Virus record (IMG/VR): IMGVR_UViG_3300044627_003892
Reading direction: 5' to 3' (one strand)
From: a virus
Taxonomy: Duplodnaviria; Caudoviricetes
DNA length: 64,000 nt
Both the position numbers and the translations under genes were made by a program. The notes under the pieces were generated by a model that made no database searches, was not told the origin of the DNA, and worked only from the letters and a program-made list of their open reading frames with translations. This document shows positions 2,251-55,243 of the stretch, in pieces (the stretch's first letter is position 1; each line of letters opens with the position of its first letter).

Positions 2251-2298
2251 TAGTTGAATTTAAGAACAAATTCATTTAATTTTAATAAAAACTATTTT

Positions 2299-4362: not shown

Positions 4363-4374
4363 ACCCCCTTTTTT
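4347..4374. terminator. Bidirectional intrinsic terminator
   Basis: A-tract-GGGGG-AATAAA-CCCCC-T-tract between convergent genes. Confidence 0.75.
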
Positions 4375-4378
4375 ATTT

Positions 4379-5197
4379 TTAGAAATTATATAATTGTGAC
4401 CTATGGATAAATTCGTATTTCTGATTACCAAGTTCTTCAATCAGTTTTTTACCTGTATTCATACCAGCAAAAACTTCATGGACAACAACATATTCATTTG
4501 GTGTGTGATAGTTGTGATAACCAATTGAGAAGTTGATACAAGAGAAATCAAACTTTTTACGTAGTTGCCAAACATCAGTGTAAGGATGTTGCATATATTG
4601 AGGTTCAGACAACATACCTTCAGAAAGAACTTTTTTAGCTTTTGACTCAAATTCAGAATCCGTTTCAAAAACTTTAACACCGTAACAATATTCTGTTACC
4701 ATGTAATCGTGAGGGGCGTCAAACTGAATAGCATAACCTACATTACTAAAAAATTCAGGGTCTGCTTCTTTTGAACCCAAACAACCAACTTCTTCTGTTA
4801 CAAACAAAGCAACTTTAATTACATCAAAGACTTCTAATAACTGAAGACAGGCAAACACCCCACACTTATCATCACCACCAATACCTGTAGGGCCACCCAA
4901 GTCGTTATACGCTTTAAGTGATAAACTTAAATTACCTTTTGAATCTTTAAGTTGTTCTTCATGGATGTTGATTGTGTCAATTTTATGTACCGTATCGGTA
5001 TGTGCAACAATACAAGGATAAAATTCACCCTCATTTATTTCACCTTTTGTGACATAAACATTTCCAAAGTCATCAACTTTAAAATTGTGTTTTTTTTCGG
5101 TTAAATATTCAACCAAAAATTCAATCATTAAATCTTCTTTAAATGATTTTGTAGGTATTGACAATACCTTTTTTAAGAAATCAACATTTTCTATCAT
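4379..5197 (-). CDS. M20/M28-clan zinc peptidase
   Basis: AHTDTV, GGDDKCG, TEEVG and GYHNYH metal-ligand motifs. Confidence 0.8.
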   Translation of the reverse strand: MIENVDFLKKVLSIPTKSFKEDLMIEFLVEYLTEKKHNFKVDDFGNVYVTKGEINEGEFYPCIVAHTDTVHKIDTINIHEEQLKDSKGNLSLSLKAYNDLGGPTGIGGDDKCGVFACLQLLEVFDVIKVALFVTEEVGCLGSKEADPEFFSNVGYAIQFDAPHDYMVTEYCYGVKVFETDSEFESKAKKVLSEGMLSEPQYMQHPYTDVWQLRKKFDFSCINFSIGYHNYHTPNEYVVVHEVFAGMNTGKKLIEELGNQKYEFIHRSQLYNF

Positions 5198-5224
5198 AGC
5201 TCATAAAGATAAGCTATTTTTCTA

Positions 5225-6304
5225 TTAAAACAATTCAGGATGATATAAAAAATTTAAGAAAGTATCATAATCAATTTTAACGGTTTGGTTAAATTTATCT
5301 TTACTATGATTACTATATGTAATAAGTATTTTTCCGTCATCAACATCTTGAATTATGAATTTGTCAGGTGTCTTTTCACCAAATGTTTTTTGTGGAGGAA
5401 ATTCATACCATTTATTAAATTCACCATACTTTAACTTTGATAATTTTTCAAGTATTTCAGAGTTTTTACGATAAGAATCAATATTATCACTATCTTCAAT
5501 TTTTTCCATGATTTTATCAAGATTCCAAGTTACACTTCTGTTAAAACCTTCATCATCATAATTTTGACTATCAAAATAAGCATAATAATCTTCATATAAA
5601 TCTTCATCAAACTGTATTCCCAATTGGTCAATACTTGTTTTTAACATATCTGAAAGTTTAGCGTCTTTGTCTTCACCAGACTTATCCCAAGTATTTAAAA
5701 GAATTGCTACAGTTGTCATGTAGAGATTAGTACATTTTTTCTCAAAGATATTTAAAGGAAGTAAAGCGTTACATAATTTAGATGTAACATATTGTCTTAA
5801 TCCTTTAACCAAGGCTTCATCATATTCACTTGAATAATCGTAAATAATACTATCTATCTCATTTGAAAATTCATTTTTTAACCACTTACAAATTTCAATA
5901 ACTTTATCGTTATGATTTCTTAAATCCTCAACGGAAAGACTAGGTCTTAATATTTTTACTATTTGTTTGACCCTATCTAAATTCTCATCATTGAAATAAT
6001 GTAGTAAATAACCCTCATCCCAATCATAATCCATGGAATAATCATCAACAAAAACATTACCTCCATAATACCCCCCTTGGAAAGCAACTCTAATTAAATA
6101 ACCGTTATTAGTTTCATCATTATTTCTAGTGAAAAGGTCAACATAATCATCACTATCAAACGTTAAATAAACCAAAGACTTACCAAGATTTTTTTCATTT
6201 ATTCTCGTAATACGTAAAATATCCTCATCGTCTTCGTACCTAACAAAATTTGCAGTAACTAAATCTTCCGTAAAATCTTTTAATGCCTGATAAAGTTGAC
6301 TCAT
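5225..6304 (-). CDS. Hypothetical protein (acidic)
   Basis: 359-aa ORF, no recognisable motif. Confidence 0.7.
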   Translation of the reverse strand: MSQLYQALKDFTEDLVTANFVRYEDDEDILRITRINEKNLGKSLVYLTFDSDDYVDLFTRNNDETNNGYLIRVAFQGGYYGGNVFVDDYSMDYDWDEGYLLHYFNDENLDRVKQIVKILRPSLSVEDLRNHNDKVIEICKWLKNEFSNEIDSIIYDYSSEYDEALVKGLRQYVTSKLCNALLPLNIFEKKCTNLYMTTVAILLNTWDKSGEDKDAKLSDMLKTSIDQLGIQFDEDLYEDYYAYFDSQNYDDEGFNRSVTWNLDKIMEKIEDSDNIDSYRKNSEILEKLSKLKYGEFNKWYEFPPQKTFGEKTPDKFIIQDVDDGKILITYSNHSKDKFNQTVKIDYDTFLNFLYHPELF

Positions 6305-6378
6305 TAAACTTTTTTTAAATAAATACTTGGTTAAAGAAGAATATATTTATATCTTTACAACATAGTTCTTTGATTTAT

Positions 6379-6761
6379 GGGGGTGTTTCTGGATTTGACA
6401 GGAATGAATTTATTATAAAACGCACGTCGGGGCTAAACTAACCCTGTAAAACTGGTTTAAAACACAAACGGCAACACAATTGCAAAACTTTCTACACTCG
6501 GTTTAATCCGTACTGAAGAAGTAACTGTAGCCTAATCTAAGATTAGTATACAACGGGGTCGGTGAGCATATAACCTTGCAACAGAAGCTTGTACCGTGGT
6601 GTGGTTTCTATCCGAAAAGGAACAAAAACCTTGTTTGTCTGTTACGGAAGGTTAATCTAAACAGAATATTTTGGAATGTTAAGAACTAACATTATCCTAA
6701 ACGTGTAGTGTTTTATCGTAAACATTTTTGGACCTGGGTTCGAAACCCAGCACCTCCACCA
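6379..6761 (+). ncRNA. ssrA: tmRNA
   Basis: 5' GGGGGTG pairs with 3' CACCTCC-A-CCA including G3:U; GATTTGAC D-loop analogue; CTGGGTTCGAAACCCAG T-arm; internal tag ORF 6470-6535. Confidence 0.92.
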
Positions 6762-6764
6762 ATT

Positions 6765-6790
6765 AAAAAGGGACTTTTCAGTCCCTTTTT
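6765..6790. terminator. Bidirectional intrinsic terminator after the tmRNA
   Basis: AAAAAGGGAC-TTTTCA-GTCCCTTTTT. Confidence 0.8.
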
Positions 6791-7762
6791 TTATTTTATA
6801 AATCTTTTAAAGTTTTTCAGTTCTTCAGTTAAACTTGATTCTTCTTCTTTTTTCTTAGATTCCTCTTCTTTTTTCTTAGATTCCTCTTCTTTTTTCTTAG
6901 TTTCCTCTTCTTTTTTCTTTTCTTCTTCTTTCACTTTTTCAGTTTCTTTAGCCGCCTCAACAAACTCTTTAATTGGTAATCCTAAAAGTAATGAGTTACA
7001 AAAGTTATCTTTTTTGATAATATGACCTTCACCAAATAATTCAATAACTTCTTTAACATATTTTTCACAATCAGATTCACTTGTTATTACGGATATTTTT
7101 TTAGTTCCAAATTTATCAATTATTTTTTCAAATTCAGTATCTACTTTAGATTGTGACCAATCTAACCATTCCGGTACAGGTTCAGGAAATTCAAAATTAG
7201 CTAAATTTGATTCCGGTATCGAACTACAAAAATTATAAGTACTATTTGATTCATCTTTTCCATTTTCAGACCAAGATAGATGGTAATGGGGCCCTGTTGA
7301 ACGTGGACTTGGGTGTCTATATTCATCAATAAACGTAAATCCGTCAATAGATTGTCTAGCAGCACACAAAAGAGTTGATATTTTATCTAATGTTTCATCG
7401 TCAGACACTCTGAGGTCACCTACAGCTGTTTTCCCAAACACTATGTCATTAGCGTTTCCTTGGGTATGTCGGCTTCTTGTTGACTTATGATATCTATCAC
7501 GTCCAGCACCAAATCTTATCTTTAACTCAGGCATTTCTTTTTTAAACGCTGAAGATACTTTTTTTATAACATTTGCTAATTCTGGAGTAATATCACCAAG
7601 TTCATCTATTGTTGATTTATGTGCATATCCTAAACTATTTAAATGTGTTCTAACACCATTTGCATTAACGTGAGTTGATTTATCAACTTTTTCTTCAAGT
7701 AAAACATTTCTTAATTTTTTAATTTCAGAAATAACTTCTTTGTGACTATTAATCTTATTCAT
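6791..7762 (-). CDS. Peptidase M15-like (LAS fold) protein with Glu/Lys-rich repeat tail
   Basis: SRHTQGNANDI (SxHxxGxAxD) and HYH zinc motifs; start moved to ATG 7762 (MNKINSHKE). Confidence 0.7.
   Translation of the reverse strand: MNKINSHKEVISEIKKLRNVLLEEKVDKSTHVNANGVRTHLNSLGYAHKSTIDELGDITPELANVIKKVSSAFKKEMPELKIRFGAGRDRYHKSTRSRHTQGNANDIVFGKTAVGDLRVSDDETLDKISTLLCAARQSIDGFTFIDEYRHPSPRSTGPHYHLSWSENGKDESNSTYNFCSSIPESNLANFEFPEPVPEWLDWSQSKVDTEFEKIIDKFGTKKISVITSESDCEKYVKEVIELFGEGHIIKKDNFCNSLLLGLPIKEFVEAAKETEKVKEEEKKKEEETKKKEEESKKKEEESKKKEEESSLTEELKNFKRFIK
6836..6930 (-). repeat. 21-nt tandem repeat encoding KKKEEE(S/T)
   Basis: About 4 copies of ttcctcttcttttttcttaga. Confidence 0.8.
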
Positions 7763-25534: not shown

Positions 25535-27196
25535 TCAAACAATTGGTTTATAAAATTTATGATTTCCGATTGTTGTAGTGTATTTTAATTTGGAATAATC
25601 CCAACTTGGTTTAATTGACGTTGTATGGTAAAATTCAGCACCTTTTGTATTATCAGTACCTTTCTTTTTAATATAATTTTTAACAAGGTTTTGAGCGGTT
25701 TCCCAAGCGGAACCATCCTTAGGGTTTTTTAAAATAGATTTATTTATCTTATTTAAAAAATTATCAGTAGTTGTATCATTCCAAATTGAAAATTGTTTTT
25801 TTTGTAAAACAACATCTTTTGGCGATTTTTTTAGACTATCTGCTCTATTTCTAATAACATTTGCAACTGCTTTCATTCCTTCAGAACCTTCTCCTCTAGC
25901 CTCCCCCCATATGGTTGCGGCAACAATTAAATCATCTTTAGTTAAATTGTCTTTTTCTATTGGTTTTATTGTTTTTACCATTTTCTTAGCGCCGTCAATA
26001 ACACCTTCTTTTGATTTATCACTAGCACCCGTCAACTTGTTAACGTCATCCCAAAAAGTATCTGAGTTTTGATTTTGTTTTATACCCATAATTTTATTCA
26101 CATCATCAAAAACTGATTGTTCGTTAACATTTGGTTTTAAAACCGTCATTGCTTCAGGAAAATCTTTATTTAAAACATCTTCGTCTTTATTATCGTAAGG
26201 AATATTTTGTAAAACGTATCTAATTGAATTTAAACCTGAAATTTTCTTATCATTAGAATCTAAAACAACCCAAGGGTGGTTAACTGTTGATGTCTTATCA
26301 AAAAGTTTTTGTTTATACTCTGTGAACTTTTCCCATACATCTTGCATCTTTTCATCATTCTCAGAATACTTCCAATATTTCAATGGTGACTTTTGTCTGA
26401 AATCAAATCTTTTAGCCTGAGTTTCTTTATCTATTGAGAACCAAAGTTTAAATAGATAATCACCATCAACAACCAATGATTCTTCAAAGTCCTGAACATT
26501 ATCCATAAAGTCCTCATACTCTTCTGAAGAACCGTAACCCATTACAGGTTCAACTAAACCTCTATTATACCAACTTCTATCAAAGAAGTTTATCTTACCT
26601 TTCTCAATTTGATTTCTGTATCTATCCCACCAGTTTTTTCTTTCGTCAGGTGTCGGAATGCCAAGAGCAATAACTTTATAATATCTTGGATTTAAGTTTT
26701 CAGTAAACTTTTTAATTGTTGAACCTTTACCTGCTGAATCTCTCCCTTCAAAAACAATAATAACAGTTTTACCTGTTTGTTTTAACCATTCTTGTAATTT
26801 TAAAAGTTCAACCTGTAAGAAAAATATTTCTTTCTTGTAAATGTCTTTATCTAAAATTGACGGTTCCTCTTCGGGACTAACAACTTCTTTTTTAGTTTTT
26901 CTTTTTTCTAATGACTTAGTTAGTTGTTTAAAAAATTCAAAAACATTAATATCCTTATTACCTTTTAATTTCAAAGTTTTTAAAATACCTCTTGTAAGTA
27001 ATCCAAAATCAACTAACCCTTCTTTTGAATATTCTTCAATCTTATTAATAAATTTTTGAATTTGAGCACTATATACTTTGTTGTCTTTTAAAATTGCAAC
27101 GAGAGATTTAACCTCAGGGCTATACTTTGGTTTGTCAGCTTCTGTCAAACCCATATTATTTTTTATCTTACTAACTTCAGTTAATAAATTCCTCAT
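25535..27196 (-). CDS. ppk2: Polyphosphate kinase 2 fused to a C-terminal SleB/CwlJ-like cell-wall hydrolase
   Basis: FEGRDSAGKG Walker A, FFDRSWYNR, PWVVLDSNDKK; C-terminal IWGEARGE...AVANVIRNR...KQFS...FYH...IGNHKFY. Confidence 0.88.
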   Translation of the reverse strand: MRNLLTEVSKIKNNMGLTEADKPKYSPEVKSLVAILKDNKVYSAQIQKFINKIEEYSKEGLVDFGLLTRGILKTLKLKGNKDINVFEFFKQLTKSLEKRKTKKEVVSPEEEPSILDKDIYKKEIFFLQVELLKLQEWLKQTGKTVIIVFEGRDSAGKGSTIKKFTENLNPRYYKVIALGIPTPDERKNWWDRYRNQIEKGKINFFDRSWYNRGLVEPVMGYGSSEEYEDFMDNVQDFEESLVVDGDYLFKLWFSIDKETQAKRFDFRQKSPLKYWKYSENDEKMQDVWEKFTEYKQKLFDKTSTVNHPWVVLDSNDKKISGLNSIRYVLQNIPYDNKDEDVLNKDFPEAMTVLKPNVNEQSVFDDVNKIMGIKQNQNSDTFWDDVNKLTGASDKSKEGVIDGAKKMVKTIKPIEKDNLTKDDLIVAATIWGEARGEGSEGMKAVANVIRNRADSLKKSPKDVVLQKKQFSIWNDTTTDNFLNKINKSILKNPKDGSAWETAQNLVKNYIKKKGTDNTKGAEFYHTTSIKPSWDYSKLKYTTTIGNHKFYKPIV

Positions 27197-46512: not shown

Positions 46513-47307
46513 ATGGTTATTACAGATAGATTAAAACAAATTATTTTTAAACACCTATATAGAGAGTTAGGTGATTGTGAGATTATTCCTTATAATGGGT
46601 CTATATGGTTCATTAATAGGGATAATAAACATTGGTACTTTGAACTTGATGAGTCAGGTACTTTATGGTGGAGATACGATTTTTTTAATTCGTTTTTTCA
46701 AATATTCTCCATGAGTTCGGATGATTTTTGTCCTGTTCTATCTTCTTGGGTGGAAGAGGTCTTAAATCATAAGGTATCCACAACCCAGGATAGCCTGTGT
46801 AACGTATGTAAACTGGTGGAAGAGGTCTTAAATCATAAGGTATCCACAACCTTCATTCCACTTCCAATTACAACGGACAAGGTGGAAGATGTATTAAATC
46901 ATAAGGTATCCACAACGTGCGATGTTAAAGTTCGTGTTCCTTGGAAGGTGGAAGATGTATTAAGTCATAATGTTAAGGTGTCTACAACTACCATTCTCAA
47001 ATACCCCGAGCATTCATTGGTGGAAAAGGTCTTAAATCATAAGGTATCCACAACCGATTCACTTGATTACGTTGGAAGAATTGAGGTAGAAGAGGTATTA
47101 AATCATAGGGTATCTAGAACCTGCCAAACAAGCGTTTATTGTGATAGGACGGTGGAAGAGGTCTTAAATCATAAGGTATCCACAACGCAGAATTTGAATT
47201 ATGTCGGCCAAGGACTGGTGGAAGATGTATTAAATCATAAGGTATCTACAACGGAATCGTATTTTGGACCCTTCACAAGAGGGGTGGAAGAGGTATTAAA
47301 TCAATAA
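46513..47307 (+). CDS. Array-bearing protein A: conserved ~80-aa N-domain plus 8 units of VEEVLNHKVSTT + 10 variable aa
   Basis: Uninterrupted ORF through a repeat-spacer array; N-domain paralogous to 54010, 54632 and 55230. Confidence 0.85.
   Translation: MVITDRLKQIIFKHLYRELGDCEIIPYNGSIWFINRDNKHWYFELDESGTLWWRYDFFNSFFQIFSMSSDDFCPVLSSWVEEVLNHKVSTTQDSLCNVCKLVEEVLNHKVSTTFIPLPITTDKVEDVLNHKVSTTCDVKVRVPWKVEDVLSHNVKVSTTTILKYPEHSLVEKVLNHKVSTTDSLDYVGRIEVEEVLNHRVSRTCQTSVYCDRTVEEVLNHKVSTTQNLNYVGQGLVEDVLNHKVSTTESYFGPFTRGVEEVLNQ
46749..47303 (+). CRISPR. CRISPR-like repeat-spacer array inside a CDS (8 full repeats + 1 partial, 8 spacers of 30 nt)
   Basis: Repeats start at 46749, 46815, 46881, 46947 (6-nt insertion), 47019, 47085, 47151, 47217, 47283; all spacers unique; no cas genes nearby. 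Confidence 0.6.
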
Positions 47308-47763
47308 TTAGTTATTCTCTAAAGTACCTGTATAGAAATCTAATACCATATCAAAAATATCATCTAATACATCTTTTGGTAGTTCTTCATAAGACATATA
47401 ACTTTCATCTAAAATTTGTGAGTATTTATATCCACCATAATGAAACACTGTAACATCTTCTTTATTTATCATTTCTATTTGTGAAAGTTCACCGTCTTCA
47501 TCCTTGAGGACTATTGGGTTTTCATTCATATCCATTAGTACAATATATTCATCATCGGTTGTTTCTACTACTTCCTTAATAATCTTAATCTTATTGTTTG
47601 TTGTAAGGAACTCATCACCTAACACATTTATAAGGTATTCTATACCACCGAACATTTCTCCTGTCTTTAGTAACCCCGCCTGACTTGCGATAGTTAATAA
47701 CTTCATCTGTTTTACGGTGTATTCTTCCCTTAATATTCTTTTTATGTTTTGTTGTAGGTTCAT
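47308..47763 (-). CDS. Hypothetical protein with MNLQQNIKRILREE leader
   Basis: 151 aa. Confidence 0.7.
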   Translation of the reverse strand: MNLQQNIKRILREEYTVKQMKLLTIASQAGLLKTGEMFGGIEYLINVLGDEFLTTNNKIKIIKEVVETTDDEYIVLMDMNENPIVLKDEDGELSQIEMINKEDVTVFHYGGYKYSQILDESYMSYEELPKDVLDDIFDMVLDFYTGTLENN

Positions 47764-47795
47764 AATATTATAAATATAATTATATTTATTATCAT

Positions 47796-48125
47796 ATGAA
47801 ATATCTTATAACAGAATCACAATTAGATAAAGTAATCTTTAGATATTTGGATATTAAGAACTTTATTCAGATTAAAAGAGGAAACACAATATACTTTGTT
47901 AATTCGGAAGATGATAAATATGCCCAAATCAGATATGATAGAAACGATGGTTGGTGTTATATACGCCATGGATTAATTTACGAAATTTCTTCTTTCTTTT
48001 CTTTGGACATATATGATTCTAAGGAAGTTATCGGTAGATGGGTTGAAAATACTCTACAAATGAGGGTTACTTATACCCGTTTGGTCTTTCACGATGTGAA
48101 CAATTTGTTTAAAATACCTAACTAA
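47796..48125 (+). CDS. Short paralogue of the array-bearing family, MKYLITESQL leader
   Basis: FFSL...WVENTLQMRVTYT + variable + FKIPN. Confidence 0.75.
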   Translation: MKYLITESQLDKVIFRYLDIKNFIQIKRGNTIYFVNSEDDKYAQIRYDRNDGWCYIRHGLIYEISSFFSLDIYDSKEVIGRWVENTLQMRVTYTRLVFHDVNNLFKIPN

Positions 48126-48834
48126 TAGTAATAATCTTCCACTCCCCATTATAATCTTCCACAAGACATGTAGAGTTCTCACAGAAGTCCCCTGAGTTCA
48201 TATAGTAATTCTCTATCTTCGGATGATGAATATGTCCACATACTGCCACATCATACCCCTTCTGTTTTGTTAGACCTTTTGCGTTATCCTCAAAATCAGA
48301 TACAAAGTTAATTGCCCCTTTAACAGATTGCTTTATTGTGTTTGCTAATGAATGATATGGTAAGTTAAACCACTTTCTTATTTTGTTATATAAAGTATTA
48401 AACTTAATCACAATATCATATGACCATCCACCGATTACCGCTAACCACCTCGCTTCCATTATAACGAAATCCAATACATCCCCGTGAAAACAAAAATACT
48501 TTCTATTATCTATTCCTGTATGTATATACTTTCTTACAATCCTGATGTTGTTTAATTTAAATGGAATAAAATCTTTTAGGAAGTCATCGTGGTTTCCTCT
48601 TATATAAACCACCTTTGTATTCTTCTCTGACATCTTCATGAACCTTCTGAATATCTTGGTACAATCCTTTGTCCATTTACCATTACCTTTAAGAGCCCAA
48701 CCATCTATTATATCACCGTTCAGTATTAGTTTTTCCGTTGTGTTATTATCCAAGAAACTTATTATCTTATCTGTCTGTGATTGTCTTGCTCCTAAGTGTA
48801 AATCACTCATGATTATCGTTTTCCAATTATTCAT
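48118..48834 (-). CDS. Metallophosphoesterase, LpxH-like (UDP-2,3-diacylglucosamine hydrolase family)
   Basis: SDLHLG, LNGDIIDG, RGNHD, FHGD, CGHIH, NSGD. Confidence 0.85.
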   Translation of the reverse strand: MNNWKTIIMSDLHLGARQSQTDKIISFLDNNTTEKLILNGDIIDGWALKGNGKWTKDCTKIFRRFMKMSEKNTKVVYIRGNHDDFLKDFIPFKLNNIRIVRKYIHTGIDNRKYFCFHGDVLDFVIMEARWLAVIGGWSYDIVIKFNTLYNKIRKWFNLPYHSLANTIKQSVKGAINFVSDFEDNAKGLTKQKGYDVAVCGHIHHPKIENYYMNSGDFCENSTCLVEDYNGEWKIITIS

Positions 48835-49538
48835 TCCCAGTATCCTTTATCATCCTCAAAATGATTTTTATTGTTCCTGTTGAAGAATGAACTAACCATA
48901 AGTTTTAACATATACCACACTCCTTTCTGTTTGAACCTTCTTGGACTTGTGAATACCGTTGTATTCATGATATAAAACTTGCTTGGTTTAACTTGTTTGG
49001 AGAATAGATAATCCTCGGCAACTCTTGCGTTTTCATCAAACCCACCGATTGTATCATATACTTCTTTCTTAACCATCATGAACCCACCAAGACAAAATGG
49101 TGTGATTGGTTTGAATACCTTTTGTATTGTGTCAAACAATCTGAATATACTATTATACTCACCTGTCGTTGACCTTACCTTACATGTAATCAAATCTGTA
49201 TTATGTAATAAGAACTCCCATATACAATTGTTTAATATGTTGAAATCCAATAAGAATATGTCAGCGTCCAAAAATAGAACATAAGGTGTTTCCACATTCT
49301 CTGCTCCCTTATTTCTTGCAACAGACGGAAGTCCTCCTGAAATAATCTGTAGATTAAAATAATCTGTTCTCCTATTTTCCAAAGAATAGGATGTATAATC
49401 ATCATCCGATGAATCACAAACAATAACTCTAACATCTTGTATTCCCTTTTGAAAGTTTAATAAGGACAACGTTTGTTCTATTATCTTGCCCTCGTTCTTA
49501 CAAGGGATTACTATGGTTAAAAACTTTGATAAATCCAT
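48831..49538 (-). CDS. Family 2 glycosyltransferase
   Basis: TIVIPCKNE, VCDSSDD, ARNKGA, FLDAD, GGFDE, EDY; start moved to 49538. Confidence 0.88.
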   Translation of the reverse strand: MDLSKFLTIVIPCKNEGKIIEQTLSLLNFQKGIQDVRVIVCDSSDDDYTSYSLENRRTDYFNLQIISGGLPSVARNKGAENVETPYVLFLDADIFLLDFNILNNCIWEFLLHNTDLITCKVRSTTGEYNSIFRLFDTIQKVFKPITPFCLGGFMMVKKEVYDTIGGFDENARVAEDYLFSKQVKPSKFYIMNTTVFTSPRRFKQKGVWYMLKLMVSSFFNRNNKNHFEDDKGYWE

Positions 49539-49646
49539 AATAATAACTATTAAAAACAACCTCAAACCATATTATCATATTCTTATTAAATTATTAACCC
49601 AATATGTATTGTTCAATTTTATGTGTATCTTTGTATTTATTATAAT

Positions 49647-49964
49647 ATGAAGATTGAGCATAAGGTTAAAGCAATTGTAAAACTAATTAATACATTATAC
49701 TCTCCTGACGAGATTAAAGTTAGAAAGAGTGAGTTTGATGATGAGATGTTAATTGATGTTTACGTTTCTCATATTGATGACTCATATATAACCAACCCTT
49801 ACCATTATAATCTTAATAAACTAAAGGAATTAAATTTAGAACGTGAGATTAGAAGGGCGATAAAGGATTTTTTGAGTATTAAAACAAGCGGACTTAATCC
49901 ATACACAGGTTTCGCCCCGTATGCTGTTCACGGCATAACAATAGATGTAAGATTAATATTATGA
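49647..49964 (+). CDS. Hypothetical protein
   Basis: Start moved to 49647; overlapping TATCTTTG and TATTTAT motifs upstream. Confidence 0.65.
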   Translation: MKIEHKVKAIVKLINTLYSPDEIKVRKSEFDDEMLIDVYVSHIDDSYITNPYHYNLNKLKELNLEREIRRAIKDFLSIKTSGLNPYTGFAPYAVHGITIDVRLIL

Positions 49965-50314
49965 AATACCTTATAACAGAATCAAAATTAGAGAAAGTAA
50001 TCTTTAAGTATCTTGATATTCAGGACTTTGTGATATATGACAACAAGAAGAGATTCAGCAATTATATATATTTCTTAAACAGTGAGTCAGATAGGGAATC
50101 ACAGATTAGTGTTTATACTAACAACGCCTTTGGTGAAGTTAGGAATTGGATATTTGTAAATCGTGATTTGACTGATAAATTATCTACCTTATTCCCCATT
50201 GGTAAATCGGATTGTTTGGATATAATCAAAGAATGGGTTAATAATACTTTGGGTATTAGTGATAGTACGATTTGGGATGGTCCATATGATTACAGATTAG
50301 CGGTTACAGATTAA
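49961..50314 (+). CDS. Short paralogue (MKYLITESKL...WVNNTL)
   Basis: Aligns by eye with 47796 and 51297. Confidence 0.7.
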   Translation: MKYLITESKLEKVIFKYLDIQDFVIYDNKKRFSNYIYFLNSESDRESQISVYTNNAFGEVRNWIFVNRDLTDKLSTLFPIGKSDCLDIIKEWVNNTLGISDSTIWDGPYDYRLAVTD

Positions 50315-50327
50315 TAGTTAACGAAGA

Positions 50328-50606
50328 ATGAAATACTTAATTACAGAATCACAGTTAGAATCATTTTTACTTAGAAGGTTTACAATGGATGAATTGGAAT
50401 CACTTAGGGATGATTATAACTACATTATGGATGAAGAAGATTTTGAAGATTCCGCCGACAGAGATGATTACGCTTATGAATTAATTGAAAAGTTCATTGA
50501 TAGACATAGAGGTGAAGAGTTTTTTCAATATGATGATGATACTGAATTCTATGATAAACGTTCCAAATATATTGGAGCATTACTCAAATTCTTAAACTCT
50601 AATTAA
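50328..50606 (+). CDS. Acidic hypothetical protein with MKYLITESQL leader
   Basis: 92 aa. Confidence 0.7.
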   Translation: MKYLITESQLESFLLRRFTMDELESLRDDYNYIMDEEDFEDSADRDDYAYELIEKFIDRHRGEEFFQYDDDTEFYDKRSKYIGALLKFLNSN

Positions 50607-50609
50607 TCT

Positions 50610-50939
50610 TTAGAAACCTTTTCTTTCATTATACATCCGTGTAATTCTTTTTCTATAATGATTTTCTAACCCTTGGTGTATATCATCATACCAAAATTCA
50701 TCTTCAGGTAATGTGCTAACAAATCTCCAATGTACCCCATCCATCATAAAGGTTATTGTTGTGTAGACTAACTCATCTAAAAAATGTGAACTTAAAACCT
50801 TTCTGTCTTTTGTAAGACGATAAGCACCTTCAAAAGATTCAAGAAACTCATTTTCCATTTCATCATTAGAAAGTCTTCTTTTAATTCTCGCTGATAGTTC
50901 TTCCCTCAGTATTCTTTTTATAGATTCTTTTAAGTTCAT
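50610..50939 (-). CDS. Hypothetical protein with MNLKESIKRILREE leader
   Basis: 109 aa; similar to the N-part of 52434. Confidence 0.7.
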   Translation of the reverse strand: MNLKESIKRILREELSARIKRRLSNDEMENEFLESFEGAYRLTKDRKVLSSHFLDELVYTTITFMMDGVHWRFVSTLPEDEFWYDDIHQGLENHYRKRITRMYNERKGF

Positions 50940-50972
50940 ATTATTATAAATATGATTATATTTATATTCTAT

Positions 50973-51293
50973 ATGAAATATCTTATCACCGAATCACAAT
51001 TAGATAAAGCCAAATCGGTAATAAATAATTTAATGATATCTGAGTTAAATAATATATTAGATTATGATAGAACATCAGATAGTGATTTCATTAATATATA
51101 TAGCCAGGAAAGAGGCCCTGATTTTTTTATTTTAATGGAGTTTGACCATAGTGATGGTAGATTATTTATTGATGAATCTTTTTTAGATAAGTTTTCATCC
51201 ATGTATCCACTTGATAAAGAACAATCAGGTAAATTCATTTCTGATTGGTTTAGTAAAGTATTTGATGTTGATGTTATGTTTTTTGAATATTAA
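50973..51293 (+). CDS. Hypothetical protein with MKYLITESQL leader
   Basis: Start moved to 50973. Confidence 0.7.
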   Translation: MKYLITESQLDKAKSVINNLMISELNNILDYDRTSDSDFINIYSQERGPDFFILMEFDHSDGRLFIDESFLDKFSSMYPLDKEQSGKFISDWFSKVFDVDVMFFEY

Positions 51294-51296
51294 TAT

Positions 51297-51626
51297 ATGA
51301 AATACCTTATCACCGAATCACAATTAGACAGAGTAATCTTTAGATATTTGGATATTAAGAACTTTATTCAGATTAAAAAGGGTGCAACTATATTTTTAGT
51401 TAATTTAGAAGATGATGAATACGCTGAGATTAGATATGATAAAATTAGTGGATGGTGTTACATTGTTAATAGTTTAATTAATGAAGTGGCCTCTTTCTTT
51501 TCTTTGGGTATCTCCGATTCCATGGAACTTATCCGTAGATGGGTTGAAAATACCCTCAAAGTAATAGTTGTACAAGTCCGTGGGGCTAAACCCGCACCGA
51601 ATGTATGGATAAGAGTAAATAACTAA
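51297..51626 (+). CDS. Short paralogue of the array-bearing family
   Basis: Close paralogue of 47796 (VIFRYLDIKNFIQIK...WVENTL). Confidence 0.75.
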   Translation: MKYLITESQLDRVIFRYLDIKNFIQIKKGATIFLVNLEDDEYAEIRYDKISGWCYIVNSLINEVASFFSLGISDSMELIRRWVENTLKVIVVQVRGAKPAPNVWIRVNN

Positions 51627-51634
51627 TATAATAT

Positions 51635-52045
51635 ATGAAATACATAATCACTGAGAATCAATATAGCAAAACTCTTAAACCCTTATTAGAGAAATTTGGT
51701 ATGCGTACTCTGTGTAAAATGACTGATAAGGAACCTGAAGATATTATTGATGAGATTGGTCTTAAAGGAACAAGAGAAGATATTATCTTTCTAACAAAAA
51801 CTATACTTGAAAATGATATCTCAACCGTCTTGATGTATTGTAGTTATAATATCATACCCACTCGTGACTCTATGAACTTGGTCGTCTACATACCTAAGCC
51901 AGCTCCTGCAAATGTGGGAAGGTATATCTATGAGGAAGGTACAAGAAGTATGTATAGAGATGTTATTTCTAAGGCTTTATATCAATTGGGTGGTGGTCTA
52001 ATTAGAGTTCACAATATTGAGGTTTATAATACAGGAAATTGTTAA
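51635..52045 (+). CDS. Hypothetical protein with MKYIITENQ leader
   Basis: 136 aa. Confidence 0.7.
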   Translation: MKYIITENQYSKTLKPLLEKFGMRTLCKMTDKEPEDIIDEIGLKGTREDIIFLTKTILENDISTVLMYCSYNIIPTRDSMNLVVYIPKPAPANVGRYIYEEGTRSMYRDVISKALYQLGGGLIRVHNIEVYNTGNC

Positions 52046-52061
52046 CTTATATTTATATATA

Positions 52062-52418
52062 ATGAAATATCTTATCACCGAATCAAAATTAAAAACATTC
52101 ATTAAAAACAAGTTTAATATTGACCTGACAGGTCGTGTGGAATTTGAACCTGATTCATATGAATTATTGGTTTATTTTGATAACTATCTTACTCAAGATA
52201 GTTTAGCAAGAAGACGGAGAATGGATAACTATGGTCCGATATATTTTATAGAATTAGATAATGGAAATAAAATATTTTATCAAATGAATTATAGTTCAGA
52301 CAGTCCTTTAATTCTTAGTAACGAAGGTGCTCAATATACTGAATCACAATTTATGAATTTACTTGGTATCTCAGGTCTTGGAATATCAATTGAACAATTT
52401 CTTGATTTATACGTATAA
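52062..52418 (+). CDS. Hypothetical protein with MKYLITESKL leader
   Basis: Start moved to 52062. Confidence 0.7.
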   Translation: MKYLITESKLKTFIKNKFNIDLTGRVEFEPDSYELLVYFDNYLTQDSLARRRRMDNYGPIYFIELDNGNKIFYQMNYSSDSPLILSNEGAQYTESQFMNLLGISGLGISIEQFLDLYV

Positions 52419-52433
52419 GATACTTAATCACTA

Positions 52434-53234
52434 TTAGATTAACGTACCAACATATCCTAATGCATCCCAATGACTCTTTCCTTTTGGTGTCTTAGTTGCA
52501 CCCGCTACCACATCTAATCCTCTTGCTTTCGATGGACCTGTAATAACATGTGATGATGGAACTCCTTTACCTACCGCAGACTGAACTGAACTTGATGTAT
52601 TCTTAGATATAGCGTAAGGTTCTACTATGAATAACTTACTTTTGTTTTTAATAAGAGAAGCAACTTTAGATGAGTATGAACATCCTGCACTGAATAATAC
52701 AACTGTCGCGTTAGGATTTTGTATGATTGCGGTTTCAATCTTATCAAATTGATTATATCTATATCCTATAACATTTTTCTTTGAACTATTACTTTTAAGT
52801 AAGTTTATTTGTTCACCTATGTTTAAGTCTCCCTTTCTATAATCTAATCCACCCATTAATATAACATCAACAATTGGAGCTTTAGAATCTTTTTTATCAT
52901 CAGACTCCGTTGATTCGTATATGACATCAACACATTCTTTATTATAAAACCTTTCTAAGTCATCCCTCATGTAGTTTTCTACATACGTAACACCATCTTT
53001 ATATTTTAACCACTCAGACAACGGACCATCGGTATCAGAACCATCTGTAATCATGTCCATAATTTCATGTTGTATACCACGCATGAATGCTTCAAAGTTT
53101 TCAAAATCACATGGATAATTAGTTACATTGTTATCCCATACAAACGATTTAAATCTATTCAATCTTCTTTTGAACTTTGGTGAAAAATCTGTTTCTTCCC
53201 TTAATACTTTTTTTATATTCTCTTGTAGGTTCAT
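52434..53234 (-). CDS. MNLQE-leader protein with possible minimal alpha/beta-hydrolase C-domain
   Basis: VILMGG...VLFSAG elbow-like motif (weak). Confidence 0.55.
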   Translation of the reverse strand: MNLQENIKKVLREETDFSPKFKRRLNRFKSFVWDNNVTNYPCDFENFEAFMRGIQHEIMDMITDGSDTDGPLSEWLKYKDGVTYVENYMRDDLERFYNKECVDVIYESTESDDKKDSKAPIVDVILMGGLDYRKGDLNIGEQINLLKSNSSKKNVIGYRYNQFDKIETAIIQNPNATVVLFSAGCSYSSKVASLIKNKSKLFIVEPYAISKNTSSSVQSAVGKGVPSSHVITGPSKARGLDVVAGATKTPKGKSHWDALGYVGTLI

Positions 53235-53266
53235 AATATTATAAATATAATTATATTTATTATTAC

Positions 53267-53638
53267 ATGAAGTATATTATTACCGAGTCACAACATAAAT
53301 TAATATCCGAACTTGAAAGAACTTGGAGAGATTCTGAATATACGGAACAATACAATAGACTAAAACCTAAAATGATTCGTTATTTTGAAAATTTGGTTGA
53401 TTCACATTCTGAAAATGATGTAAGACTTAACTTATTTGATAGTGACCAAAACGCCGTAATGGTTTATAATAAACCAAGTGGTGATTTATACTATAATAGG
53501 AACTTTGACGATATATATGGTACAGCCTTTCCTCATCCCATTTGGTTAGTTCACGGCAAATTCATTATGTCAGATGTATTTAATGAGTTCTTTCCTGACT
53601 ACGAAGTTAAATCAGTTAGAAGTATAACATTATCATGA
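53267..53638 (+). CDS. Hypothetical protein with MKYIITESQ leader
   Basis: 123 aa. Confidence 0.7.
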   Translation: MKYIITESQHKLISELERTWRDSEYTEQYNRLKPKMIRYFENLVDSHSENDVRLNLFDSDQNAVMVYNKPSGDLYYNRNFDDIYGTAFPHPIWLVHGKFIMSDVFNEFFPDYEVKSVRSITLS

Positions 53639-53973
53639 AATATTTAATCACAGAATCACAATTAGATAAAGCAATACTCAAGTTTCTTGATAGTCAGGAT
53701 TTTAATATAACTAAAATTGGTGCCAGTACATATATTTCATACCCTGAAGATGATTTTGCTCAGATTAAATATGGTGGTAATCATTCCAATAATGAATTGT
53801 GTTTTATCTATAAAGGTTTAATTGAAGCAATTTCTTCCTTCTTTTCTCTTAACAGTTATCAATCCACCAGAATTGTTGGGCAATGGGTTAAGAAAAAACT
53901 GAATTTGGAGGGTCAAATGTCCAACAAGATAATGAGCTCCCAATGGTCGTTAAAATTACCAACTGAAGATTAA
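53635..53973 (+). CDS. Short paralogue of the array-bearing family
   Basis: ISSFFSL...WVKKKL...LKLPT. Confidence 0.7.
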   Translation: MKYLITESQLDKAILKFLDSQDFNITKIGASTYISYPEDDFAQIKYGGNHSNNELCFIYKGLIEAISSFFSLNSYQSTRIVGQWVKKKLNLEGQMSNKIMSSQWSLKLPTED

Positions 53974-54004
53974 TTTGTATTTTCAAAGTTTTTTTGTATC
54001 TTTG
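53974..54004 (+). promoter_or_regulatory. Bacteroidota sigma-A promoter of the three-gene array operon
   Basis: TTTG(53974-77)-N19-TATCTTTG(53997-54004), ATG at 54010. Confidence 0.75.
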
Positions 54005-54009
54005 TGCTT

Positions 54010-54648
54010 ATGGTTACAGATAAGCTAAAACAACTCATATTCAAACACCTATACAAAGAGTTAGGTAATGTGGAGATAATCCCGTATAAAGACTCTGTAT
54101 GGTTCATTGATAGGGAAAATTGTTATTGGTATTTTCAGTTGTCTAAAGATGGATGTTTATTTTGGAGATACTCATTCTTCCCATCGTTTTTCAGTATTTT
54201 CTCTTTGGAGCAAAGTGAGTTTGAACCAATAATATCTTCTTGGGTGGAAGAGGTATTAAATCATAAGGTATCCACGACAGGTAATAAGCTCGGTTACTTC
54301 TCGCGAAAGGTGGAAGAGGTATTAAATCATAAGGTATCCACAACAAAAATGTTTGTAATTGACGAATTTCCTCTGGTGGAAGAGGTATTAAATCATAAGG
54401 TATCCACAACTGAAGAGAAAACTACTGTAACAGCAAAGTGGGTGGAAGAGGTCTTAAATCATAAGGTATCCGAAACTTTTGAAGTAGACGCCGCCCAAAA
54501 AAGAAAGGTAAAAAAAGTATTAGATAGTAGGGTATCAACAACTAAAAATAATTCCTTATTTTCCGAAAGGTCAGTGGAAGAAGTATTAAATAGTGCTTGG
54601 GTGAAAAAGGCATTAAACAATAAAAAAGAAAATGAAAGTAACGGATAG
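54010..54648 (+). CDS. Array-bearing protein B (5 units)
   Basis: Same N-domain; VEEVLNHKVSTT repeats. Confidence 0.85.
   Translation: MVTDKLKQLIFKHLYKELGNVEIIPYKDSVWFIDRENCYWYFQLSKDGCLFWRYSFFPSFFSIFSLEQSEFEPIISSWVEEVLNHKVSTTGNKLGYFSRKVEEVLNHKVSTTKMFVIDEFPLVEEVLNHKVSTTEEKTTVTAKWVEEVLNHKVSETFEVDAAQKRKVKKVLDSRVSTTKNNSLFSERSVEEVLNSAWVKKALNNKKENESNG
54243..54591 (+). CRISPR. CRISPR-like array in CDS (5 full repeats + 1 partial, 5 spacers of 30 nt)
   Basis: Repeats at 54243, 54309, 54375, 54441, 54507, 54573; degeneracy increases toward the 3' end. Confidence 0.6.
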
Positions 54649-55243
54649 ATTAAGACAACTCATATTCAAACAACTATACAAAGAATTAGGTAATGTGGAA
54701 ATTATCCCTACCCAATACAGTTATTGGTTTATTAATAGAGAAGAAAAATACTGGTATTTCCAACTAACTGAAAGTGGATGTTTATATTGGAGATATGATT
54801 ATTTCAAATCTTTCTTTTCTTTTTTCTCTTTGGAGTCCAAAGATTTTGAACCAATTATTTCATCTTGGGTGGAAGAGGTATTGAATAGTAAAGTATCCAC
54901 AACAATTGTGCAGATGCATCATAAGAAGGATTCGGTGGAAGAGGTATTGAATAGTAAGGTATCCACAACTCAGCAATTCAGTTTCACTTCGAATGATATG
55001 ATGGAAGAGGTATTGAATAGTAAGGTATCCACAACTGCAGGAAAGGCAGGAACTGTAACCATTGCGGTGGAACAGGTATTGAATCGTAAGGTATCCAAAA
55101 CAGTCCGTGACGTAGGTGAAGGAAACTTTTTGGTGGAAGATATATTGAATCGTAAGGTATCCAAAACGGAAGAATTCATCTCAAGAAGAGCGGAATCGGT
55201 ATATGAGGCATTAAACAACAAAAAAGAAAATGAAAGTAACTGA
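54632..55243 (+). CDS. Array-bearing protein C (5 units)
   Basis: VEEVLN(S/R)KVS(T/K)T repeats. Confidence 0.85.
   Translation: MKVTDRLRQLIFKQLYKELGNVEIIPTQYSYWFINREEKYWYFQLTESGCLYWRYDYFKSFFSFFSLESKDFEPIISSWVEEVLNSKVSTTIVQMHHKKDSVEEVLNSKVSTTQQFSFTSNDMMEEVLNSKVSTTAGKAGTVTIAVEQVLNRKVSKTVRDVGEGNFLVEDILNRKVSKTEEFISRRAESVYEALNNKKENESN
54868..55215 (+). CRISPR. CRISPR-like array in CDS (5 full repeats + 1 partial, 5 spacers of 30 nt)
   Basis: Repeats at 54868, 54934, 55000, 55066, 55132, 55198; gene-specific variant GGTGGAAGAGGTATTGAATAGTAAGGTATCCACAAC. Confidence 0.6.

Follow-up and report, generated by a model that had tools for sequence, protein, structure and literature searches.

Viruses are known to carry mini-CRISPR arrays and solitary repeat units (Racr RNA anti-CRISPRs, PMC10651486), and huge phages carry compact arrays devoid of cas genes (PMC7162821), with repeats that resemble those of the presumed host phylum. 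The arrays described here, which we analysed in a 64,000-nt stretch of phage DNA (the window) and in its relatives, resemble them: they hold one to a few spacers, come without genes for adaptation and often without an effector, and are phage-borne or, in G007, borne by a conjugative element. Known phage arrays and repeat mimics are non-coding, whereas the CRISPR-type repeat described here is coding sequence as well: the first repeat supplies the final 12 codons of a protein and, as judged from the sequence, ribosomes read on into the array and translate it. In the literature we came across no coding gene to which a CRISPR-like array is fused in this manner. Confident ORFs are masked by the SRUFinder pipeline before its search starts (PMC10651486), so that coding arrays of this kind would escape it by design; this suggests that repeat mimics of this class go unnoticed wherever ORFs are masked. 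A second counterpart is provided by the type VI-B (Cas13b) arrays of Bacteroidota, which share the 36-nt repeat, the spacers of about 30 nt, the CAAC 3' end and, more weakly, the U-rich centre, and which include arrays without cas1 and cas2 that are filled in trans (bioRxiv 10.1101/092577; PMC8092290). The phage repeat differs from these in its 5' end (GGUG), in the location of the array inside a coding sequence and in its antisense orientation in the short genes of the family. Diversity-generating retroelements also equip a conserved phage protein scaffold with a C-terminal segment that is hypervariable. In contrast to these, segments are here replaced wholesale and not by adenine mutation, no reverse transcriptase (PF00078) was found in five records, two of them complete, and no second copy of the spacers that could serve as a template repeat was found in the window or in its relative G001.

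The short genes belong to a family of at least 1,399 homologues, present in 8-15 copies per genome in freshwater T4-like jumbo phages, and each array sits on a paralogue of this one family, which amounts to 8-15 arrays per genome. The shared N-domain comprises about 80 amino acids, and its final 12 codons double as a 36-nt CRISPR-type direct repeat. It is real coding sequence, with differences at third positions twice as frequent and a ratio of synonymous to nonsynonymous changes of 769:786. An AF2 model (pTM 0.71) includes the first repeat in the fold that it predicts (helix 72-87, strand 93-97); a fold search gave no PDB match at E <=0.001 and only uncharacterised family members in BFVD, and a Pfam search with the family matched nothing. 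In gene 47796 (47796..48125, plus strand; 109 aa), a single repeat-spacer unit follows the N-domain, as delineated from the ORF and from family alignments A1 and A2. A TGG codon (48039-48041) precedes the first repeat, VENTLQMRVTYT (48042-48077), which, read as its reverse complement, is a direct repeat in the style of type VI-B; then come a 29-nt spacer of unrelated sequence (48078-48106), encoding RLVFHDVNN plus 2 nt, a 12-nt repeat stump, GTTTAAAATACC (48107-48118), and a closing TAACTAA (48119-48125). The first-pass annotation had noticed that GGTTGAAAATAC (at 48041) recurs as TGTTTAAAATAC (at 48106) with 10 of 12 positions identical and an offset of 65 nt, and had interpreted the C-terminus FKIPN as the same DNA read in a shifted frame. 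Both statements are exact: since a 29-nt spacer shifts the reading to the +1 frame, the stump is read as (L)FKIPN-stop. In the same frame, GTTGAGAATACCCTACAAATGA reads L-R-I-P-Y-K-stop.

The other short paralogues of the window, all on the plus strand, are preserved to differing degrees. Gene 51297 (51297..51626) had been said to have the same layout, and its geometry is indeed the same (repeat 51543-51578, 29-nt spacer 51579-51607, decayed stump 51608-51619, TAACTAA 51620-51626), but the stump matches the gene's own repeat at only 6 of 12 positions, which is not significant alone; the gene is identical in G001. In gene 53635 (53635..53973), a diverged repeat (53887-53922) and a 26-nt segment are followed by the stump GTTAAAATTACC (53949-53960) at the stated offset of 62, identical to the family consensus at 10 of 12 positions, and this tail is kept in G001, G004 and G005. 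In gene 49961 (49961..50314), the repeat (50237-50272) has diverged and a clear stump can no longer be made out in the tail; the copy claimed at offset 59 is weak, and a 14-nt tandem duplication is located at 50290-50320. The units of genes 51297 and 49961 are largely decayed, and all four short-gene units of the window are old, stable fossils that are not hypervariable at present. The spacer of gene 47796, for instance, is unchanged among alleles with 82-99% protein identity.

The nature of these units becomes apparent at the level of the family. Repeat-spacer units are present in 60 of 165 distinct relatives, and a downstream copy of the gene's own repeat start (at least 13/18 identity) was found in 58 of 154, with an offset of 65-68 nt in 49 of the 58 (26, 16, 5 and 2 genes, respectively) and of 131-133 nt in four. 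A mini-array on a short gene contains 1-4 unrelated spacers, full repeats and a terminal stump consisting of the first 12 nt of the repeat (GTTGAGAATACC) and followed by TAACTAA, a combination that stops all three frames; the largest arrays comprise five repeats. Within the window, this 12-mer occurs 20 times with up to two mismatches, compared to 5.7 +/- 2.1 times in shuffled sequences. Identical repeats within the range of 23-50 nt, unique spacers of near-constant length and a truncated last repeat, of which the first 12-20 nt are kept, are all features of CRISPR arrays with their degenerate terminal repeat. In contrast to CRISPR arrays, which are non-coding and transcribed from a leader, the first repeat is here part of an ORF that is subject to purifying selection, and the long arrays are open in frame. 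Spacers of the short family measure 28-32 nt (29 nt, n=34; 30 nt, n=28; 31 nt, n=7), are not limited to multiples of three and fall into 71 unrelated clusters. Internal repeats are identical to the first repeat of their own array at 34.2 of 36 positions, compared to 29.9 of 36 for the repeats of other arrays, and 12 of 20 internal copies are exact (36/36); repeats were duplicated in situ. Some arrays extend beyond the stop codon with full repeats in other frames, which demonstrates that they are arrays at the DNA level and not protein repeats. Tails of the L[RK]IP type were found in 76 of the 120 best homologues and in-frame tails of the VENT type in 10, and one allele (L101) represents an 'empty site', ending in WVENT-stop with the 12-nt stump only. 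The unit of repeat, spacer and partial repeat that had been proposed from the window is thereby borne out, and the own-variant repeat copies and the empty site support the suggested repeat-duplicating insertion. The segment between the repeat copies does not vary freely in length, and it is replaced between closely related genes.

The reading we favour, with a probability of about 0.65, is that of a coding repeat followed by a translated mini-array whose frame is set by the spacer, with units that were added by CRISPR-type integration, probably by the Cas1-Cas2 of the host acting in trans, and that are old in the window. CRISPR-type spacer integration would add a unit and duplicate the repeat, and the host enzymes are the probable agents because the phages themselves lack Cas1 (PF01867 is absent from eight phage records, two of them complete). 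PADLOC likewise reported no Cas match in 10 large ORFs. The ribosome would read from the N-domain into the array, and spacer length would fix the frame and hence the protein tail: a 30-nt spacer would keep the reading in frame (VENT...), a 29-nt spacer would shift it to the +1 frame and yield L-R/K-I-P-x-N/K with a stop contributed by the repeat or by TAACTAA, and a 31-nt spacer would lead immediately to TGA. The two classes recognized in the first-pass annotation, a 66-nt period that reads through and a 65-nt period that shifts into a stop, survived every test run, but the scheme was incomplete in that it lacked this third class with an immediate in-frame TGA. During off-target 'neo-CRISPR' integration, Cas1-Cas2 inserts a spacer at a repeat-like site and duplicates the local repeat-like sequence; the units described here likewise combine spacer insertion and local repeat duplication outside a canonical array. 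The conservation of the repeat-like site at synonymous positions among about 1,400 homologues, however, argues for selection rather than accidental targeting: no variation is seen in the first 12 nt, not even at synonymous sites, and the GC3 of the repeat is 0.52. Integration of this kind would suggest that CRISPR adaptation acts on the DNA of lytic jumbo phages in nature, and would constitute a natural case in which the insertion of a spacer writes new protein sequence. The arrays also provide a concrete handle on the host, presumably a member of the Bacteroidota with a VI-B-type system.

The units might be of use at the RNA level, as crRNA or decoy for a Cas13b-like effector of the host, or at the protein level, as variable C-terminal peptides on late-expressed and maybe capsid-packaged proteins. 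A motif similar to the T4 late promoter, TATAAATA (47769..47776, plus strand), is located 27 nt before the ATG of gene 47796 and recurs at 50945 and 53240, preceding 50973 and 53267; it is a putative promoter, and the region was not found in any RNA run. MKY[LI]ITE starts nine ORFs of the window whose bodies are unrelated. This is reminiscent of the T4 internal proteins with a capsid targeting sequence (PMC9026906), where a variable cluster encodes numerous small proteins that share nothing but a short N-terminus ending in Glu, here MKYLITE, which conforms to the (L/I)-x-E propeptide pattern. The gp21-family prohead protease (PF03420) scored above the cut-off in five of five related records. 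There is no sequence homology to IPI-III, capsid targeting is a prediction from the N-terminal sequence, and the array genes begin with MKVTDRL and have no I-x-E site. A more elaborate interpretation, which we regard as rather unlikely, is that the CRISPR-repeat mimic is kept to exploit spacer integration for the production of random 10-residue C-terminal peptides on a late, probably capsid-packaged multi-copy protein. The long arrays would then be strings of such peptides, the whole would represent a diversification system built on CRISPR adaptation, and the termination in three frames would serve as a safety device. In a related version, expression of the array RNA would require translation through the array.

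The composition of the spacers is foreign: their GC content is 43%, flat over the codon positions and free of codon periodicity, compared to 29% for the N-domain (GC3 26%) and 31-32% for the genome. Genes with 85-95% identity in the N-domain and 92-100% identity in the repeat have unrelated spacers, but the spacer is unchanged where N-domain identity is at least 98%; the tail had been called hypervariable, which does not apply to the units of the window at present. Wholesale replacement sets in at a divergence of about 5-15% between the flanking domains. Four metagenome runs contained identical sequence with no gain or loss of units in this population, which is weak evidence as contigs break inside the arrays. 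One could argue that no spacer was acquired de novo and that cassettes were only shuffled, with the 36-nt repeats serving as sites of homologous recombination between paralogous arrays, co-infecting phages or host arrays. Some observations are in favour of this: L041_701 and L045_701 have identical N-domains but different distal spacers (spacers 0 and 24 vs 0 and 20), spacer 20 is found also in a second array of the same contig, the difference looks like recombination between arrays, and array A is colinear in six genomes with internal losses and gains. Yet repeat copies bear the rare variants of their own array (e.g. 36/36 in L064, L060 and L054), shuffling can generate neither 71 unrelated spacer clusters nor a GC content of 43%, and known bacterial repeats (25/36) are too diverged for homologous exchange. 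Shuffling as the sole process is therefore unlikely. The searches for protospacers, which revealed none, covered a minor part of the relevant sequence space: 162 spacers compared by blastn-short with the window, the whole of G001 and all of about 200 loci matched array copies only, the INPHARED phages (distant mode) contained nothing relevant, matches in G007 and G008 were at chance level, three window-unique spacers had no match in IMG/VR or one in a near-identical relative only, and the whole region gave no megablast match to phages.

Alternatively, the integrating activity might be an as yet unrecognized phage-encoded enzyme other than Cas1, which makes staggered cuts 36 nt apart and fills in short DNA, and the arrays would then be a diversity generator owned by the phage. 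The presence of numerous arrays in all relatives despite the lack of Cas1 and reverse transcriptase, and the many ORFs of these genomes that have no assignment, are in favour of this idea. On the other hand, no candidate gene is consistently found beside the arrays, and the repeat has clear relatives among bacterial CRISPR repeats. Type VI-B repeats are characterized by complementary 5'-GUUG and CAAC-3' ends and a poly-U loop (bioRxiv 10.1101/092577), a rule that is fully obeyed by the repeats of two Bacteroidota MAGs (36 nt, GTTG...CAAC, U-rich loop, 30-nt spacers), which are 25/36 identical to each other. The reverse complement of the short-family repeat matches these at 25/36 and 24/36 positions; 12 of the matching bases are given by construction, as the MAG loci were found by a 12-mer search, and 12-13 of the remaining 24 positions match. 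For the repeat of the array genes, read forward and free of this ascertainment, the values are 21/36 and 19/36 (shuffle p <=2e-4). Repeat and spacer sizes are those of type VI-B; the phage repeats in their best orientation read GGUG...CAAC, not GUUG, and their centre is weakly U-rich. The likeness to Cas13b-type repeats stated in the first-pass annotation is real, but it resides on the opposite strand. Relative to the mRNA, the short-family repeat runs antisense, and its truncated copy is found where a canonical VI-B array would have its leader-proximal end. An inner stem (ACTCT/AGGGT) that had been described for the copy at 48042 is not supported by covariation; pairs 13/23 and 12/24 show no compensatory pattern, C-A is their commonest state, and the hairpin was dropped as evidence. 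An Rfam scan of 46.0-56.5 kb (E up to 10) revealed neither CRISPR-DR nor any other credible family. G007, the only one among 401 Flavobacteriaceae genomes with this repeat-end pattern, carries mini-arrays of the same repeat type on a Bacteroidota conjugative element, which likewise speaks against a phage-owned system; the contig of G008 ends inside its array. For Flavobacterium columnare, a VI-B array without cas1 has been described that is filled in trans (PMC8092290). We therefore consider a phage enzyme quite improbable.

The long array genes of the window are also located on the plus strand. Gene 46513 (46513..47307) consists of a homologous N-domain and eight in-frame units with 30-nt spacers, its repeat encodes VEEVLNHKVSTT and is in the VI-B sense orientation, and three overlapping genes of the same kind follow at 54004..55964 (54004-54648, 54632-55243 and 55230-55964). 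These long in-frame arrays contain the same repeat type as the short genes in the opposite orientation. All of their spacers (85/85) are exactly 30 nt long and none (0/85) contains an in-frame stop, which indicates that translation is under selection. This perfect phase, together with the position of the first repeat within the predicted fold, is what would be seen in an ordinary protein tandem repeat, a C-terminal helix spread by unequal crossing-over with fast-evolving linkers, or in a RiPP-like precursor with leader, recognition sequence and hypervariable core. Such explanations are very improbable and largely refuted by the repeat copies that are out of frame or untranslated; they also do not account for the 28-32-nt spacers of the short family, the aperiodic and foreign base composition of the spacers, their wholesale rather than gradual replacement or the fixation of the repeat ends at synonymous sites. 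The idea that chance produced the 10/12 match in gene 47796, and that the L-K/R-I-P tail is a conserved protein motif with no relation to the repeat, which a single match in an AT-rich gene (chance probability about 0.002-0.01 allowing for offsets) and the nonsignificant second copies in 51297 and 49961 would permit when taken by themselves, is refuted by the family-level data: offsets peak at 65/66, exact 36/36 second copies exist, the E codon covaries with the tail residue (GAG with R, GAA with K), which is what a single piece of DNA would produce when read in two frames, and in G001 gene 6634-7002 a private GGG variant is repeated 12/12 in the third copy.

The gene at 47796-48125, one of the short paralogues with an N-domain of about 80 aa, carries behind a TGG codon (48039-48041) a 36-nt repeat (48042-48077) encoding VENTLQMRVTYT, followed by an unrelated 29-nt segment, the spacer (48078-48106), a second, partial repeat copy, GTTTAAAATACC (48107-48118), and TAACTAA (48119-48125). 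The 12-mer pair that the first-pass annotation had reported for this gene at 48041 and 48106 was recovered exactly, with 10 of 12 positions identical at an offset of 65 nt. As to the paralogues, the same layout claimed for 51297 is correct in its geometry but not in its second copy, which matches at only 6 of 12 positions; the copy claimed at offset 62 in 53635 corresponds to a recognizable stump, i.e. a shortened last repeat copy, and in 49961 (claimed offset 59) the stump has been lost. The tail of 49961 contains a 14-nt tandem duplication (2.2 copies, 50290-50320). Allowing up to two mismatches, the 12-mer GTTGAGAATACC occurs 20 times in the window versus 5.7 +/- 2.1 times in shuffles, on the + strand at 48042, 48107 and 51543 and on the - strand at the 3' ends of repeats in the long arrays (46513-47307 and 54004-55964), genes in which a homologous N-domain precedes in-frame repeat-spacer units.

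About 160 loci of the short family were fetched and 165 distinct genes extracted, 60 of which have one or more spacers delimited by a further copy of the gene's own repeat. Spacers were 28 nt (n=2), 29 nt (n=34), 30 nt (n=28), 31 nt (n=7) or 32 nt (n=3) long. Internal repeats mostly match the first repeat of the gene at 36/36 positions, and their mean identity is 34.2/36 within their own array versus 29.9/36 to other arrays; the last copy comprises only the first 12-20 nt. Arrays reach up to five repeats and run beyond the stop codon and into other frames (e.g. L054, L057, L041_1116, L125), and one allele (L101), which ends in WVENT-stop with the stump alone, is the empty-site state. These loci show that pieces of about 29-31 nt have been inserted and that the local 36-nt repeat has been duplicated with them. 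In the nearest related phage genome, G001, a paralogue (L014 6634-7002, - strand) stands in place of the unrelated window gene 49623-49964; in its tail, a third repeat copy, which is partial, reproduces a private GGG variant of the gene at 12 of 12 positions (TTGGGAATACCC, read LLGIPLN).

Homologues of the short-family protein number at least 1,399, none of them named, with 8-15 copies per genome. Among the 120 best matches, the repeat W-VENTLQM[RK]VTxT is nearly invariant, two full repeats are present in 13 proteins, and the tail ends with L[RK]IPxx-stop in 76 and with an in-frame VENT[LP]-stop in 10, the others stopping earlier; the ten unrelated residues following the repeat occur in 99 distinct versions in 119 proteins. 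The apparently conserved C-terminus had been explained as the same DNA read in a shifted frame, and this proved correct: it is the repeat in the +1 frame, because GTTGAGAATACCCTACAAATGA translated from the next base onward yields L-R-I-P-Y-K-stop, with GAA for GAG giving K for R. Stump and TAACTAA together stop translation in all three frames, with TGA at once in the +2 frame (52/60 arrays), a stop 5-6 codons on in the +1 frame (49/60) and a stop 4-6 codons on in frame 0 (35/60). At the short-family loci, in-frame stops were found in 3 of 34 spacers of 29 nt versus 15 of 28 spacers of 30 nt, in the latter frequently at codon 9 or 10, a difference that may reflect selection favouring the LRIP-type ending or disfavouring read-through.

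Spacers have a GC content of 43%, flat by codon position (0.44/0.42/0.45), the N-domain one of 29% (0.35/0.24/0.26) and the genome one of 31-32%; spacers are thus foreign-looking. They matched nothing in the window, the whole G001 genome, INPHARED, two Bacteroidota MAGs (G007, G008) or, for three spacers, IMG/VR. When gene pairs were binned by N-domain DNA identity, a spacer was shared by 5 of 5 pairs at 98% or more, 1 of 4 at 90-95%, 2 of 16 at 85-90% and 2 of 1357 below 85%, while repeats stayed 80-100% identical throughout. The segment behind the repeat keeps to 28-32 nt rather than varying freely in length, and its proposed hypervariability among relatives is borne out by the 2 of 16 pairs sharing it at 85-90%, where repeats are 80-100% identical. 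Since alleles of 47796 with 82-99% protein identity have the same spacer and four metagenome runs contain the window sequence without change, the units in the short genes of the window are fossils; arrays with pristine repeats are found in its relatives.

Repeat positions 1-12 are almost invariant, synonymous sites included, and GC3 is 0.52 in the repeat versus 0.26 in the N-domain; the repeat is constrained as nucleotides. The N-domain is real coding sequence, with differences at third codon positions occurring at twice the frequency of those at first or second positions and a ratio of synonymous to non-synonymous changes of 769:786. In its AF2 model (pLDDT 77.6, pTM 0.71), for which a fold search returned no known fold, the first repeat residues form the end of helix 72-87.

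All 85 spacers of the long arrays are 30 nt long, and none has an in-frame stop, whereas each of the other frames has stops in 21-53 of the 85. Across six genomes (the window and its relatives G001, G002, G004, G005 and G006) the spacer order of array 46513-47307 is colinear with gains and losses of whole units, every array fitting, as a subsequence, into a single series of about 13 units, and private units mostly adjoin the N-domain. This pattern may be likened to leader-end addition with internal loss, and in their behaviour the long arrays resemble canonical ones.

GTDB genomes were scanned for pairs of the 12-mer at a spacing of 64-68 nt, which yielded the two MAGs, G008 (Bacteroidales), with an array at a contig end beside ordinary bacterial genes, and G007 (Flavobacteriaceae), with four VI-B-style mini-arrays of 2-3 repeats and 30-nt spacers (L211 = G007:C8:32001-40000, 3603-6404). 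The latter lie between conjugative-element genes (DUF2786/DUF7168, a weak TnpB-like ORF, bPH_2), with RadC and a TraG/TraD coupling protein nearby; with this element, cas-less arrays of the phage repeat type are seen on two kinds of mobile element. Both MAG repeats are 36 nt long with GTTG...CAAC ends, a U-rich centre and 30-nt spacers, which are hallmarks of type VI-B (bioRxiv 10.1101/092577), and match each other at 25/36 positions. The short-family repeat matches them in reverse complement at 25/36 and 24/36 positions, of which 12 match by ascertainment, and the long-array repeat matches them in forward orientation, without ascertainment, at 21/36 and 19/36 (shuffle p <=2e-4). Because of these matches, and because the long-array repeat and the short-family repeat agree at 22/36 positions when the latter is reverse-complemented, the two subfamilies carry one repeat type, oriented oppositely with respect to their homologous N-domains (24-31% identity). 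The motif scan of the window (+ strand in short genes, - strand in long arrays) agrees with opposite orientations (46749-55964 versus 48042-48118). The likeness of the peptides VENTL...KV..T and VEEVL...KV..T probably stems from the near-palindromic repeat ends and stem.

CRISPR spacer integration likewise inserts pieces with duplication of the local repeat. Cas1 is absent from eight phage records (two complete) and reverse transcriptase (PF00078) from five (two complete), and PADLOC gave no Cas match in ten large ORFs. In Flavobacterium columnare, a II-C module acts in trans to fill VI-B arrays that lack cas1/cas2 (PMC8092290). From this absence and this precedent we infer that the units were probably made by host Cas1-Cas2 acting on the phage repeat. 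Arrays also recombine with one another. Compact cas-less arrays are known in huge phages (PMC7162821), as are repeat mimics (PMC10651486); a full-text literature search found no account of translated arrays with a coding repeat, and SRUFinder masks ORFs ahead of its repeat search (PMC10651486).

The evidence on function points two ways. A role as RNA, either crRNA or decoy, is suggested by the nucleotide-level constraint on the repeat, by the occurrence of this repeat type on a different mobile element (G007) and by the full repeat after every spacer in the short genes when read on the strand GGUG...CAAC, which is the architecture of the Cas13b crRNA. This strand is the antisense one in the short genes but the sense one in the long arrays. 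A role as protein is suggested by reading frames that stay open through the long arrays, by the stop depletion in 29-nt spacers and by TATAAATA motifs at 47769, 50945 and 53240 (+), 27-28 nt upstream of three MKY[LI]ITE starts. TATAAATA is the T4 late promoter consensus; the + strand of the window has 23 copies versus about 13 expected. Also counted for the protein role is the resemblance of MKYLITE, the short-gene start, to the T4 capsid targeting sequence, with a putative cut after Glu (PMC9026906). Otherwise unrelated small ORFs share the start MKY[LI]ITE[SN]Q (50328, 50973, 51635, 52062, 53267; +) or MNLQ[EQ]NIK[KR][IV]LREE (47308-47763, 50610-50939, 52434-53234; -), a common stretch of 7-14 residues. 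Both motifs hold an (I/L)-x-E site, as T4 capsid targeting sequences do, and the genomes of the relatives contain a gene for a gp21-type prohead protease.

The window (30% GC, densely coding on both strands) and its relatives are freshwater T4-like jumbo phages: the nearest record, G001 (IMG/VR, 240.8 kb), has an inverted syntenic copy of window 46.5-56 kb, two relatives with complete genomes are 294 kb and 321 kb long, each of five related records encodes PF03420 (T4 gp21-type prohead protease), and the window stretch was found in at least 24 metagenome runs from lake water. Auxiliary genes encode a PPK2 polyphosphate kinase fused to a cell-wall hydrolase domain (25535-27196, -), a ClpB-like double AAA ATPase (2254-4362, +) and a metallophosphoesterase with a family-2 glycosyltransferase (48118-49565, -). 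The last two sit within the paralogue cluster, where the metallophosphoesterase gene converges with 47796 and its stop overlaps the end of the latter.
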